Notes under the pieces: generated by a model
Database searches by the model: none
The model's input: the letters and a program-made list of their open reading frames with translations, nothing else
Told to the model about the DNA's origin: nothing
Assembly: GCF_988242995.1 (NCBI RefSeq)
Contig: NZ_OZ547043.1
Length of the DNA: 64,000 nucleotides
Reading direction: 5' to 3' (one strand)
Shown: positions 3,292 to 43,190 of the stretch, in pieces
How the letters are laid out: each line of letters opens with the position of its first letter
Position numbering within the stretch: position 1 is the stretch's first letter
Translations under genes and position numbers: made by a program

Positions 3292-3356
3292 GTCTAGAGT
3301 CAAGATTAGCCCCCGTGGTGTTGTCAGGTGCATACCTGCAACGTGCGGGGGTTTTC
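3292..3356 (+). ncRNA. rdlD: Candidate Rdl antisense RNA of LDR copy 2; ends approximate
   Basis: Same GC-rich hairpin plus T-run as in copy 1, antisense to ldr leader. Confidence 0.35.
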
Positions 3357-3718
3357 TCTCTCCAGCGACCAATGCCACCAGGGATTAAGCCCCCGCAACA
3401 TTGCGCCTCACCGGAACCTTTCCGGCTTGCCGCTGATTCTACGACTGTTTTTTACCGTCAGCACCCGGCAATCTTCCTCATTGCGTGATGCCTTCCAGCT
3501 TAATTTCTTTATTTGCATTAGTTGCAGTTCATATCCGGGCTGACTCCAGACTGGTAGTGAAATGCGCAATTTTGTAGAATTGCGCCTCCTCGCGACCTCC
3601 CCAGTGAATCTGTTGCCTCATTTTTTACATACTGCGTATTCGACTTCTCCACCTGTTGCGCAAGAGAAACTGGGTTTATTCATTTTTGCGAGGCCGACTT
3701 CTTTCTGGACAGGACTTT

Positions 3719-10760: not shown

Positions 10761-11468
10761 GCCTGACCTTTTTTGTTTTTTGCCCGGTCGGGTCAACGTT
10801 ATGAGGTGGGGATGCCGTACTAATTAACATCAGTGTAACAGTGCGGATCCTCCATAAAATGCCCCTCGTGACCTACAATCTGTCAACAGAATGTGAAAAC
10901 GTCAATACAGCCAACCGGGATTTACACCAACGGTGAGAATCCACAAACAAAGATTAAAAAAACTTCAAACAGCTATTTGCAGCAGAGAAATTTGTGCTAC
11001 TCCAACATGACCAGAACAATCAGCTTAATATTTAGCAACAATTGGTGATTAAGTTTTATGCATTTAGTGAAAAAAATCTGAGGAAAAGGTGGATATCTGA
11101 GCGATTAATACCATGAACGCTAAAACGCACAGGGGAAAATGCCAGCGCCAGCCATAAGTAACGCAAAAAAAGATTTAAGCAAATATAAAAAAAGACAATG
11201 GTTTCTGTCACAAATCCGTTAATGGATAGTGAGATATGGGGCGCAAATTTGGCAGGGAAATATGTGGTGTGTTGCCGTTTAGATCGGATAAGACGGATAC
11301 GCTGTATCCCACAATGAGTGCGGTGCCGAATTTGGTCGGTGCCAGAGGATTACTCGCCACTTCGTGGCTCGCCCTGCGGGCCGTTGCTGGCGCAACGTTC
11401 TCTCGCTTCGCTCGAGTCGAACCTCCCTGCCCCCGGAGGTTCTCATCCTCTTCAGGCCGCAGAAAGCA

Positions 11469-11497
11469 AAAAAACCAGCCCGTAGGCTGGTTTTTCT
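11469..11497 (-). terminator. Rho-independent terminator downstream of tRNA-Pro
   Basis: Hairpin CCAGCCCGTAGGCTGG flanked by A-run and T-run (aaaaaccagcccgtaggctggtttttc); may act bidirectionally. Confidence 0.7.
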
Positions 11498-11501
11498 AAA
11501 T

Positions 11502-11578
<77 letters not shown>

Positions 11579-11669
11579 AATGCGGGGCGCATCTTACTGC
11601 GCAGATACGCCCTCGTCAATCCCTTAATAGCAAAATGCCTTTTGATCGGCGAGAAAGTCAGCAGGCCTC

Positions 11670-13361
11670 TTAGTTAGCCGCTGCCTCTTTTGCCTGCGGG
11701 ATGTGACACCAGTTGTTGTTTTCGTTAATTCCACCATCAGGTGAAGTATAGCCAAGACACCCCATGATGGTGTCGTACAGCTCTACGTGACGGCGTGACA
11801 CTTTCATGTCGGCTTCTTTTTTCAGCTGCGCAAATGCCTGCGCATTGGCCGGATTTTCCAGATATTTATCCGACATCCAGACCATCATCGGCACACGGAA
11901 CTGTTCCGGCGGTGCCAGTTCACGCGGCGTGCCGTGCAGGTGCTCGCGTTCATTAATTGACTCACCGTGGTCAGCTGCGTAGAACACAATCGCTTTCTTA
12001 TCGCGAACCTGATCAATCACGCTGGAGATAAAGTGATCCACATAGGTCACCGAGTTGTCATAGGAGTTGATCATCTGCGCTTTGGTACAGCCGCTATCAA
12101 CACCAATACATTCCGGCTTCCACTGCGCAAAGCTGCGCGGGTAACGCTGGGTGTAGTTAAAGTGTGAGCCTTTGGTATGCAGAATGATCAGATGCTTACC
12201 ATCCGGGTTGCGCCCCAGCGATTGCTGCATTTCGTCTACCAGCAACATATCATCTACCGGCTTGCCACGGTTACGTGGCTCCGCACCAATCTGCTCACGA
12301 TAAGCAATGTTGTCCGCCATCGTATTGCTGTAGAACCACATTTCGCTTTGCATAGCGTAGAGATCAGAACTGAATCCTAACTGCTTCAATACCGCGAAAA
12401 TGTTCTGTTCTTTTAATGTGCGCTGCGGATTATCTTCTGCTCCACCCTGACGTACAAACATGCAACGCAGTGAGAGTTTGGTTGCGGTATCACAGGAGTA
12501 ACCACGGAACGCCGCCAGATTTTTCTCCTGGGCCAGCTTCGGCGTGGTATTACGCTCATAGCCAAAAATGCCCATATGGTCCCAACGCGTGGTTTCACCG
12601 ATGATAAACACGACATAAGTGTCATCAACGTTTTGCGGTGCCTGATAAGTGAATTTCTTCGCCGGATTAAGCAATGAATTATTATCGGAAGATTCATCGA
12701 CCCGCGCCCAGGCATACAGCCCCAACGCAGAAAGCCAGTTTGATGGCAGATAAGAGTTCGCTACGACACCGCCATAACTCGGCAAATCAACGCCGGTCGC
12801 CCTCTCCACTTTCTTCTGCTGGATATCCAGCAAACGAATCGGTGCCCAAACCATAATACCCGCCAGTACGACGACCGCCAGGCTGCGAATACGCTGCCCT
12901 GGGGTTCGCAGTTGTCGGAGCAAGGTGTAGCGACAGCGGTTATTCCAGATAAGGATAAGAGGCAATGCACTAACGGCGATTAACCAGAGAATAAAGTTCA
13001 GACCAACAACTTCTTTTGACAGGTCGATATCGGTGGTCATGACGGAAGCGATGATGCCATAACCAATGACCACATTAAGGAAGGTCATGTAATAGCTGGC
13101 ACCGGCGGAAAAGAGCACCACCAGCGATGCCAGAATACGCCAACTGCGGCGGCCAAACAGCGAAAGAAGACGTAGTAAAAAGAAGGTCACCAGTACGGTG
13201 GCAGCCAGTTCAACAACAGCAGAAATGCCTTTCCAGACGGTAAAATCGTGCGCATAGCTGCCGAAGCGGCGGTAAAAAACCGCGCCATTCATAAAAAGGC
13301 CAATATAGATTGCAAGCAAAAAGCTCAGCTTCTGCTGTGTAATCGATTTGATGTATCTCAT
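11670..13361 (-). CDS. eptB: Kdo2-lipid A phosphoethanolamine transferase EptB (563 aa)
   Basis: N-terminal TM domain plus sulfatase-like domain; start trimmed from 13394 to ATG (plus-strand cat 13359-13361; [10 protein letters not shown]...). Confidence 0.9.
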
Positions 13362-22699: not shown

Positions 22700-22934
22700 G
22701 TTTTCCAACCGATTAATCATAAATATGAAAAATAATTGTTGCATCACCCGCCAATGCGTGGCTTAATGCACATCAACGGTTTGACGTACAGACCATTAAA
22801 GCAGTGTAGTAAGGCAAGTCCCTTCAAGAGTTATCGTTGATACCCCTCGTAGTGCACATTCCTTTAACGCTTCAAAATCTGTAAAGCACGCCATATCGCC
22901 GAAAGGCACACTTAATTATTAAAGGTAATACACT
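22700..22934 (+). promoter_or_regulatory. cspA promoter region and long 5' untranslated leader (cold-box region); bounds approximate
   Basis: AT-rich region upstream of cspA; function from established cspA biology, elements not individually mapped. Confidence 0.45.
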
Positions 22935-23147
22935 ATGTCCGGTAAAATGACTGGTATCGTAAAATGGTTCAACGCTGACAAAGGCTTCGGCTTCATCACT
23001 CCTGACGATGGCTCTAAAGACGTGTTCGTACACTTCTCTGCTATCCAGAACGATGGTTACAAATCTCTGGACGAAGGTCAGAAAGTGTCCTTCACCATCG
23101 AAAGCGGCGCTAAAGGCCCGGCAGCTGGTAACGTAACCAGCCTGTAA
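22935..23147 (+). CDS. cspA: Major cold-shock protein CspA (70 aa)
   Basis: Recognised sequence [70 protein letters not shown] with RNP motifs. Confidence 0.97.
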
Positions 23148-23171
23148 TCTCTGCTTAAAAGCACAGAATCT

Positions 23172-23202
23172 AAGATCCCTGCCATTTGGCGGGGATTTTT
23201 TT
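23172..23202 (+). terminator. Rho-independent terminator of cspA
   Basis: Hairpin ATCCCTGCCATTTGGCGGGGAT followed by TTTTTTT. Confidence 0.75.
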
Positions 23203-23334: not shown

Positions 23335-23487
23335 TTACTCTTTCAAATTGCAGGCTAAAAATGCCGCCAGCTCATAACTCCCCTGTTTAATATGCAATTC
23401 ACACAGTGAATCTCTTATCATCCAGGTGAAAAATAAAAGCGTGAAACAAATCACTATTAAAGAAAGTAATCTATATTTCTGCGGCAT
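23335..23487 (-). CDS. hokA: Hok-family type I toxin HokA (50 aa); the in-frame upstream extension in the ORF track may correspond to the mok leader frame
   Basis: 50-aa peptide MPQKYRLLSLIVICFTLLFFTWMIRDSLCELHIKQGSYELAAFLACNLKE; ATG at plus-strand cat 23485-23487; antisense sok RNA expected nearby but not mapped. Confidence 0.85.
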   Translation of the reverse strand: MPQKYRLLSLIVICFTLLFFTWMIRDSLCELHIKQGSYELAAFLACNLKE

Positions 23488-23764
23488 TCCCAGCCCCCTA
23501 TGTTGATTTCCAACGAGTAAGAGGCTAACCTTATGGTGTTCAGGCATAGGGTAGCCTCACTTTGATTTATAGTCAGGTGGGGCTTTTCTCTGTCTGCCTT
23601 TCGGTGAATACCTGAGACAAACAGTCTCAAGCACCCGCAGCTATTCTAGCTTAATAAGTTCGTTTCTTCTCCTTGATATAATCCTAAAAAAATCTCATAA
23701 AATTAATATATGAGACAATCTTTATTCAGCAGAAGATTATTAAAGGTTGCTCTATTATTTAGCG

Positions 23765-28409: not shown

Positions 28410-29085
28410 GCGCCTATAAGGCTCTCTTACCAGCCGCGCCCTAACAGGCGCACACGATCTGACATTTGCATCCAACTTCGTTACTTACGGCCCGTAAACG
28501 GGCTGCCCGGATAGGGAATCGATAACTGCTCTCCCATTTTATCCTCTTCAAGCTGGTGCTTTATGTAATCCTGTATCTTCGCCGTGTTCTTACCCACTGT
28601 ATCGACGTAGTACCCTCTGCACCAGAACTCCCTGTTCCTGTATTTGAATTTCAAATCACCAAACTGCTCGTAAAGCATCAGACTGCTTTTCCCTTTCAGA
28701 TATCCCATAAAGCCGGATACGCTCATTTTGGGCGGGATCTCCACAAGCATATGGATATAATCTGCACAGCATTCAGCTTCCAGAATCCGTACGCTTTTCC
28801 ACTCACACAGCTTTCTCAAAATACTGCCTATTGCTCTACGCTTCTCTCTGTAGAACACCTGTCTTCGGTATTTTGGCGCAAAAACTATGTGATATTTACA
28901 GTTCCATCGGGTGTGCGCTAAGCTCTTTTCGTTCCCCATTGGGACCCCCTTTTGATTTCTTGTTTGACACTTGCAGTTGCCAGACCGCAAAGTGTTTTAA
29001 CAAATCAAAAGGGGTTTTAATAACTGGCTCAAAGCTGAAAGCTTTCCGGAACCCCCAGCCTAGCTGGGGGTTTTCTGTGCACAAT
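28410..29085 (-). mobile_element. IS200-like insertion sequence (IS200/IS605 family); boundaries approximate
   Basis: Single Y1-transposase gene flanked by about 70 bp (3' side) and about 150 bp (5' side) containing a strong hairpin (ACCCCCAGCCTAGCTGGGGGTT, 29053-29076), typical of the IS200 left end; inserted between the wecH and yiaA terminators. Confidence 0.7.
28481..28939 (-). CDS. tnpA: IS200/IS605-family Y1 transposase TnpA (152 aa)
   Basis: Start trimmed to ATG (plus-strand cat 28937-28939); MGNEKSLAHTRWNCKYHIVFAPKYRRQ... with HuH motif (YIHMLV) and catalytic Tyr region. Confidence 0.9.
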   Translation of the reverse strand: MGNEKSLAHTRWNCKYHIVFAPKYRRQVFYREKRRAIGSILRKLCEWKSVRILEAECCADYIHMLVEIPPKMSVSGFMGYLKGKSSLMLYEQFGDLKFKYRNREFWCRGYYVDTVGKNTAKIQDYIKHQLEEDKMGEQLSIPYPGSPFTGRK

Positions 29086-43074: not shown

Positions 43075-43190
43075 TGCCTGATGCGCTACGCTTATCAGGC
43101 CTACATGATTTCTGCAATATATTGAATTTGGTAGAATTTGTAGGCCGGATAAGGCGTTTTAGCCGCATCCGGCATAAACAAAGCGCACTA
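43075..43190. repeat. REP/BIME cluster (two REP-type palindromes) between avtA and ysaA
   Basis: gcctgatgcgctacgcttatcaggcctac and taggccggataaggcgttttagccgcatccggcat match the E. coli REP consensus. Confidence 0.8.

Follow-up and report, generated by a model that had tools for sequence, protein, structure and literature searches.

The element at positions 11333-11467, on the minus strand of the window (the whole 64,000-nucleotide stretch of DNA that was analysed), is very probably one unit of the tRNA-derived, structured RtT repeat, situated downstream of proK within a conserved dppA-proK-eptB interval. When positions 10900-11700 were scanned against all Rfam families, this segment matched the RtT RNA model (RF00391) over its full length (98.3 bits against a gathering score of 45, E = 1.3e-20, model positions 1-130 of 130), and extension of the scan to the whole 64-kb window identified it as the only RtT copy present. 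The element lies just downstream of proK (11502-11578, minus strand) and on the same strand, and its tail is identical at 17 of 19 positions to the last 19 nucleotides of proK, the CCA included. The window contains a single unit, with 169 bp from the tRNA 3' end to its copy, against 1.5 (K-12) or two units in relatives.

In E. coli genomes the NCBI pipeline annotates an ‘RtT sRNA’ at the same site, between dppA and proK (tRNA-Pro), and no different conserved element was seen there in relatives; the feature is thus a catalogued element at its usual place, and the proK-side RtT copy is ordinary and already known. Identity to E. coli genomes across the dppA-eptB interval amounts to 98.2-98.4%, and none of the complete E. 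coli genomes attains 99% there, so that this Escherichia-like DNA may come from a Shigella or from some other closely related Escherichia. The features of the locus are as follows.

11591-11619, minus strand: sigma-70-like promoter site upstream of proK (TTGACG, 17 nt, TAAGAT; consensus scan 9 of 12, a pattern match only)
11502-11578, minus strand: proK, tRNA-Pro(CGG), the intact source of the copied 3' part (ARAGORN; Rfam tRNA model, 60.7 bits)
11466-11497, minus strand: intrinsic-terminator-like hairpin between proK and RtT (13-bp stem, loop UACG, 7 U)
11333-11467, minus strand: complete RtT RNA element, RF00391 (cmscan, 98.3 bits; E. coli annotation)
11445-11457, minus strand: 5' strand of the closing helix, in which AGAGGAU (11445-11451) pairs with AUCCUCU of the tail (MFE fold; outer helix of the Rfam model)
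11455-11457, minus strand: GCC extension of the closing helix, which can pair with GGC of the tail
11440-11444, minus strand: junction strand GAGAA, its central A-G-A invariant in 30 aligned copies
11422-11439, minus strand: inner hairpin of CCUCC, GGGGGCAG and GGAGG (inverted repeat with the proK T arm; fold; alignment to proK 44-53)
11417-11421, minus strand: UUCGA, the first five T-loop bases (repeats and proK alignment)
11351-11416, minus strand: 66-nt core inserted in the T loop (alignment A2; covariation; four small hairpins)
11333-11350, minus strand: tail of AU, CCUCU, GGCACCG and ACCA, comprising the T-stem 3' strand and acceptor 3' strand and with two substitutions relative to proK (GG for AU)
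11281-11317, no strand assigned: REP-like palindromic unit beyond the RtT trailer and not part of RtT (REP-like by eye and in alignment A1)

Relationship of the element to proK

An initial annotation of the same DNA had described, beside proK, a copy of the 3' end of that gene with two differences and a second T-arm piece at about 11417-11427, and had read the pair as a degenerate copy of the 3' half of proK, broken into two pieces and oriented like the gene itself; it had also proposed aligning the interval with proK and scanning it at low threshold for tRNA or tmRNA. This description was borne out, with coordinates that were right to within one to three bases. Positions 11333-11351 (TGGTCGGTGCCAGAGGATT) resemble the first 19 nucleotides of the minus-strand proK gene (11502-11520) with two mismatches, and the second fragment, at 11417-11426, is the other half of the T arm (GGAGGTTCGA). 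The former match sits within a direct repeat of 23 nucleotides (11329-11351 versus 11498-11520; 87% identity, spacing 169) that extends 4 nucleotides beyond the tRNA end, so that part of the trailer is included in the repeat, and a repeat search also recovered GAGTCGAACCTCC (11414-11426) as a repetition of GATTCGAACCTCC (11517-11529). With the 66-nt core left out, the last 36 nucleotides of RtT correspond in alignment to positions 44-77 of proK (variable loop through CCA), with 31 of the 34 tRNA positions identical and two extra bases in the copy; from this alignment, the two fragments together make up a single T arm, which is interrupted between UUCGA and AU.

Chance similarity, which had been entertained as an explanation for these matches, was ruled out, as 100 shuffles of the window yielded no match to the proK 19-mer with three or fewer mismatches. 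A tRNA gene or pseudogene, or a tmRNA, was likewise rejected: ARAGORN finds proK as the sole tRNA gene in the window, only tRNA positions 44-77 are represented in the copy, and neither ARAGORN nor the tRNA covariance model (at E values up to 10) made a tRNA or tmRNA call at 11325-11467.

Predicted fold and internal organisation

The MFE fold of RtT (-57.7 kcal/mol, with a z-score of -2.2 that is modest for a single copy) contains the closing helix, the inner helix and four hairpins within the core. In that fold GAACCUCC pairs with GGAGGUUC, and the 3' end (...CACCGACCA) is single-stranded. Because its 5' segment pairs with the tail, the RtT RNA is predicted to adopt a closed multi-hairpin junction from which a single-stranded 3' end (...ACCGACCA) would protrude. 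Within the inner hairpin, GGGGGCAG resembles a variable loop and GGAGG is a copy of the 5' strand of the proK T stem; compensatory changes are seen in this hairpin at alignment columns 40-53 and 41-52. The strands that join the hairpins of the core (GAGCGAAGCGAGA, CCCGNAGGGCGAG and CGAGUA) are near-invariant. The core as a whole (its 3' boundary being ambiguous by one A) does not differ between the window, E. coli K-12 and E. whittamii, and the copies of other genera are 97-98% identical to it.

Comparison of the tail of the window copy (11333-11351) with those of relatives (L001, L010, L031, L040) distinguishes two forms. The window variant (GG for AU) is common to E. coli O169:H41, Escherichia sp. 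E1V33, UBA5654 and Phytobacter massiliensis, and a tail identical to proK is found in K-12, E. whittamii, Citrobacter and Superficieibacter; their distribution among these relatives marks the two tails as old variants. In the window the GG of the tail can pair with an upstream GCC, a pairing that is inconsistent across relatives.

The RtT family across Gammaproteobacteria

Further copies were collected by scanning contigs with a pattern drawn from the two ends of the core; the 41 loci that resulted are a sample and not a census, with E. coli and Salmonella omitted. They fall in Enterobacterales, in Oceanospirillales-like genera (Marinobacterium and Amphritea) and in Cellvibrionaceae. In an Rfam scan of 35 of these loci, RF00391 scored at or above its gathering score at nearly all core copies, and at every copy linked to a tRNA gene. 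One locus from Solimonas (L025) matched the pattern and gave no RtT match in the Rfam scan.

The same core adjoins seven types of tRNA: Pro(CGG), Pro(UGG), Tyr, Lys(UUU), Arg(CCG), Ser(GGA) and Val(GAC). The 19 nucleotides that follow the core agree with the 3' end of the nearest upstream intact tRNA at 15-19 of 19 positions in all but two copies (and mostly at all 19), and the tRNA type that best matches the tail is that of the neighbouring gene in nearly every case. For every tRNA type the 5' segment and the tail of the same copy are complementary, and the sequences involved differ from type to type (GGGGAAGGAU with AUCCUUCCCC for Tyr, and CGCCUGGAGGG with CCCUCCAGGCG for Arg); this closing helix was checked with a separate script, because copies of the ‘GGAU-GAGAA’ and ‘GGGU-GAGAA’ types are misaligned with each other in the 5' region of alignment A2.

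In alignment A2, which comprises 30 copies, the stems vary by compensatory substitution and the joining strands are near-invariant, and two of the invariant elements, CCCGNAGGGCGAG and the AGA of GAGAA (A19, G20 and A21), lie outside the search pattern. A covariation test on the RNAalifold structure, which was derived from this same alignment and is favoured by it, found 97% of cells to be paired and 54 cells with double changes, against 14.5 in shuffled data and 1-9 with slid partners. The structure returned by RNAalifold is a mixed one, and includes an invariant GUUCG/CGAGC helix that offers no variation by which its pairing could be tested. The compensatory changes in the core stems, combined with near-invariant joining strands, point to selection on the RNA fold. 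Published R-scape and CaCoFold analyses (PMC7657543; PMC8250186) likewise report that RtT covaries and contains a tandem G-A motif, and members of the family located by tRNA-Asn and tRNA-Lys genes of Actinobacillus pleuropneumoniae have been detected as RNAs (PMC4986893).

Several arrangements outside the usual one were also noted. At two Yersinia loci (L004, 115-162; L036, 4159-4206) a divergent second core ends in ...ACGAGTAA, followed by CCTGCGTTCAGGTTCGA and the next core, an arrangement which indicates that successive cores can be linked through T-stem strands alone. RtT-like cores without any tRNA context occur in an uncultured Enterobacterales MAG (L019, 156-217; L020, 373-434; L021, 7803-7864) and in Ewingella americana (L028, 380-441; L043, 14-75). 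These are partial matches to RF00391 (46-47 bits), and all are located near contig ends, as expected of multi-copy repeats. Near the core of L020 there is a CTTCTTT-type microsatellite (248-300) and a GGTGTGGGCGGCGAGCCCACGACTTTGACCTTCA-type unit repeated with a period of about 63 bp at approximately 580-830.

Alleles of the proK locus

Alignment of four alleles (A1) indicates that the window and E. coli O169:H41 each carry one RtT unit, which at this locus measures about 169 bp. E. coli K-12 carries 1.5 units (in which the tRNA 3' end, the trailer, the terminator and the 5' part of RtT are repeated), the second of them being cut off by a REP directly after UUCGACUCGA. Strain ZJ3920 retains a 5' stump and a REP only, and there too the REP starts right after UUCGACUCGA. 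Two units are found in RIVM_C039227 and in E. whittamii. This series of a stump, one, 1.5 and two units would fit unequal crossing-over between repeated tRNA 3' ends, since exchange between copies of the 3' end and trailer that lie 169 bp apart could yield each of these alleles. In K-12-like strains the locus seemed to be broken at query position 2424, which was discounted as probably an effect of BLAST joining across the tandem repeat; the locus of this kind numbered L002 is contiguous.

Among 5426 complete E. coli genomes, the RtT element is at least 80% present in 2677 and some part of it in 4051. The proK-side RtT is thus dispensable, and any role that it plays is non-essential, given that about half of E. 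coli genomes are without a complete copy.

The stem of the hairpin that follows proK also differs between alleles (AAAAACCAGCC...GGCTGGTTTTT in the window versus AAAAGCCTGCTC...GAGCAGGCTTTT in three E. coli alleles, L001-L003), with conserved flanks. Judged from these sequences, the proK terminator seems to have been exchanged or extensively remodelled while keeping its hairpin form. The REP-like unit that follows the trailer AAUUCG in the window differs from the REP of K-12 and ZJ3920; matches to the REP-derived naRNA4 (RF02564) adjoin RtT at two other loci (L015, 896-1222; L031, 474-555).

Alternative explanations

The position of the copied segment had suggested, in the initial annotation, the scar of an excised or decayed element; such a scar would be an attR-like remnant of an element that had once entered the 3' end of proK by means of a tyrosine integrase. 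The tail copy does run from the T loop to the CCA, as a direct repeat in the orientation of the tRNA, and the identity block of integrases that cross over in the T loop extends from that loop to the tRNA 3' end. However, what survives in such a scar would be limited to the part between the crossover and the 3' end, and here the 5' strand of the T stem, UUCGA and the variable-loop region have been copied as well. The repeats are only 169 bp apart and enclose the terminator and the RtT body, with no open reading frame of note, no integrase and no foreign DNA between them, and the conserved genes dppA and eptB flank the locus directly. The whole stretch is instead a full-length RtT match, whose core adjoins seven types of tRNA, and the E. 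coli alleles differ from one another by RtT units or by a REP junction and not by an island. A sample of rows, taken from the 5,422 E. coli genomes with a match, contained no island at proK, and the single broken locus that was inspected, in strain EL361, proved to be an IS621 insertion with a rearrangement. The attachment-site reading is thus not supported, being largely refuted by these observations, and a decayed integration is regarded as extremely improbable. A structured leader, another reading that had been put forward for this interval, would make RtT a cis-regulatory element in the 5' leader of dppA, for which speak its location upstream of that gene on the same strand and the Rfam class of the family (‘Cis-reg’). 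It lies, however, about 630 nucleotides before the dppA start codon, beyond the REP-like palindrome and a promoter-like site at 11211-11182, and members of the family follow tRNA genes whatever the next gene may be, so that a dppA leader also seems very improbable.

A neutral origin, in which the element would be what decay has left of a partial tandem duplication of proK and would have no RNA function of its own, is compatible with the lack of a complete copy in about half of E. coli genomes, with the terminator-like hairpin that precedes RtT, and with the drift of the tail from proK at two bases. It is at odds with a core that is 100% identical in the window, E. coli K-12 and E. whittamii (and 97-98% identical in other genera), with junction strands that are invariant across orders of Gammaproteobacteria even outside the search pattern and that accompany covarying stems, and with the detection of family members as RNAs elsewhere (PMC4986893); on balance it is judged unlikely.

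The structured RtT repeat could also be viewed in another manner, in which its core of 64-66 nucleotides is a mobile, intron-like insertion that targets tRNA T loops, and RtT units are invaded copies of tRNAs. The core would then be a discrete T-loop insertion that moves between tRNA loci within a lineage (through a targeting mechanism, or by conversion via the universal GGTTCGA/ATCC flanks) and that in some bacteria interrupts, like an intron, tRNA-Lys genes that are otherwise perfect, and the proK copy would be an old and domesticated one. Six tandem, full-length copies of tRNA-Lys in Photorhabdus caribbeanensis carry the core, and removal of 64 nucleotides from one of them (L006, 9460) leaves a tRNA-Lys that is identical, by eye, to its intact neighbour at 76 of 76 positions; all six Photorhabdus copies, once rid of the core, are called as tRNA-Lys by ARAGORN. 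The core occupies the same T-loop position in seven types of tRNA, copies outside any tRNA context exist at contig ends, and some cores group by lineage and not by tRNA type: the Tyr-linked core of Ewingella is separated by a distance of 0.05 from a copy elsewhere in that genome that has no tRNA context, and its nearest counterpart in other genomes is a Lys-linked core of Yersinia (0.11). Against this, no transposase or homing enzyme is associated with the core, and Pro-linked cores are near-identical across genera at the same locus, as vertical descent predicts. The hybrid genes of Photorhabdus are explained more simply if a tRNA-Lys gene and a Lys-type RtT underwent unequal crossing-over inside the GCAGGTTCGA that both contain, and the GAGAA motif that is shared at the 5' side shows that whole RtT units, and not cores alone, are related. 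The sample is moreover small and was chosen with a fixed pattern. Mobility of the core, whether in this general form or as the history of the proK copy, is accordingly thought doubtful, if conceivable.

Interrupted tRNA-Lys genes

Tandem arrays of tRNA-Lys(UUU) with a period of 176 bp, in which the T loop is split by a 64-nt core, are present at L006 (9046-9646) and L007 (82-710), which belong to the same Photorhabdus caribbeanensis contig, and further arrays of interrupted tRNA-Lys genes occur at L038, L034 and L033. In Rfam scans the interrupted copies score both as RtT (81-91 bits) and, weakly, as tRNA (33-37 bits), and those of L006 display copy-specific variants (for example GGTCACAGG and GATCGCAGG). 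An intron of this type was rejected for proK itself, where removal of the core of the window copy restores only the 3' 34 positions of a tRNA-Pro.

Expression and possible function

The hairpin between proK and RtT is built on a perfect inverted repeat (11470-11480 with 11485-11495) and has a predicted stability of -20.7 kcal/mol (z-score -4.0); it was folded directly because a simple terminator scan did not list it. On the RtT strand, promoter-like sites are located only upstream of proK and downstream of RtT, and the consensus scan found none that directly precedes the element. Given this arrangement, the proK-side RtT is probably expressed solely by read-through of the proK terminator, and the strength of the terminator-like hairpin, together with the lack of a preceding promoter-like site, suggests that this copy may be poorly transcribed. 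Transcription that did proceed from the proK side through the terminator would enter RtT, whose tRNA-like 3' end might be handled by the tRNA 3'-processing machinery to form the ACCA end, and an RNA of approximately 130-170 nucleotides might be released, by analogy with the copies at tyrT. According to papers that cite the work of Bosl and Kersten from 1991, the tyrT copies are reportedly released from the operon transcript by processing, and were proposed to affect the stringent response. RtT is no longer mentioned in the latest version of the CoCoNuT preprint, and nothing relevant was found in a pseudouridine-mapping preprint or in literature on proK.

The host-tailored tail and pairing strands, the invariant junction strands and the tRNA-Lys genes interrupted in the T loop all provide handles on the role of the RtT RNA, although they concern the family and are not special to the proK locus. 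The proK-side RtT does not mark a lost mobile element and matters little for the window. It does carry a caution, namely that when, in enterobacteria, a tRNA gene is followed by a copy of a tRNA 3' end, that copy is often part of an RtT unit and not an attachment site.

Comparison with known systems

The closest counterpart is the RtT RNA of E. coli tyrT (gene rttR, RF00391), with which the window copy shares its family model and its place after a tRNA gene on the same strand. In both, the tail corresponds to the last 19 nucleotides of the tRNA, CCA included, the core is conserved and GAGAA is present at the 5' side, and the repeat units are of similar size (about 170-180 bp). The tail and T-stem strands of the window copy are specific to Pro, where those at tyrT are specific to Tyr, because the host tRNA is proK. 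The tyrT repeats form a tandem array of about three RtT units of 178 bp, against one in the window, and a strong terminator-like hairpin separates tRNA and RtT in the window; to our knowledge, no such hairpin has been described between the tRNA and the repeats at tyrT.

Other systems resemble the element in part. The attL/attR repeats of tRNA-targeting integrases (for example, those of P4-like elements) are likewise direct repeats of a tRNA 3' end, from the T loop onward, downstream of an intact gene; in contrast, the repeats in the window enclose no element, are accompanied by the other half of the T arm, and go with a conserved, structured core that many tRNA loci share. As in tRNA minihelices and the corresponding domains of tmRNA, RtT has paired ends, a helix similar to that of the acceptor and T stems, a free NCCA and a large insertion inside; unlike tmRNA, it has no tmRNA features recognised by ARAGORN or Rfam, and its T loop is disrupted. 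REP/BIME elements, which here abut RtT, are also short, GC-rich, hairpin-forming intergenic repeats that are polymorphic in presence and absence, but RtT differs from them in its tie to tRNA genes, in having a model of its own and in its host-matched tRNA segments. Finally, the insertion in the tRNA-Lys genes of Photorhabdus can be removed exactly, as can the non-canonical introns of archaeal tRNAs (including those in the T loop), whereas the window copy is without a tRNA 5' half; we know of no bulge-helix-bulge motif or splicing enzyme in these bacteria.

Surroundings of the locus

In E. coli EL361 (L045, 10960-12432) the transposase gene of IS621 (an IS110-like element) lies upstream of dppA, and beyond it yiiF, yiiE and other genes stand in place of proK-eptB, a replacement that indicates an IS-associated rearrangement at this intergenic region. 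Elsewhere in the window, six other Rfam matches exceed their gathering scores (2809-2874, 3292-3357, 22775-23202, 23485-23636, 28949-29072 and 43097-43139); they comprise two rdlD antitoxin RNAs, the cspA thermoregulator, a sok antitoxin RNA, STnc490 and ES036. The gene order that these matches and dpp-proK-eptB describe for the window is that of the E. coli K-12 region around cspA.
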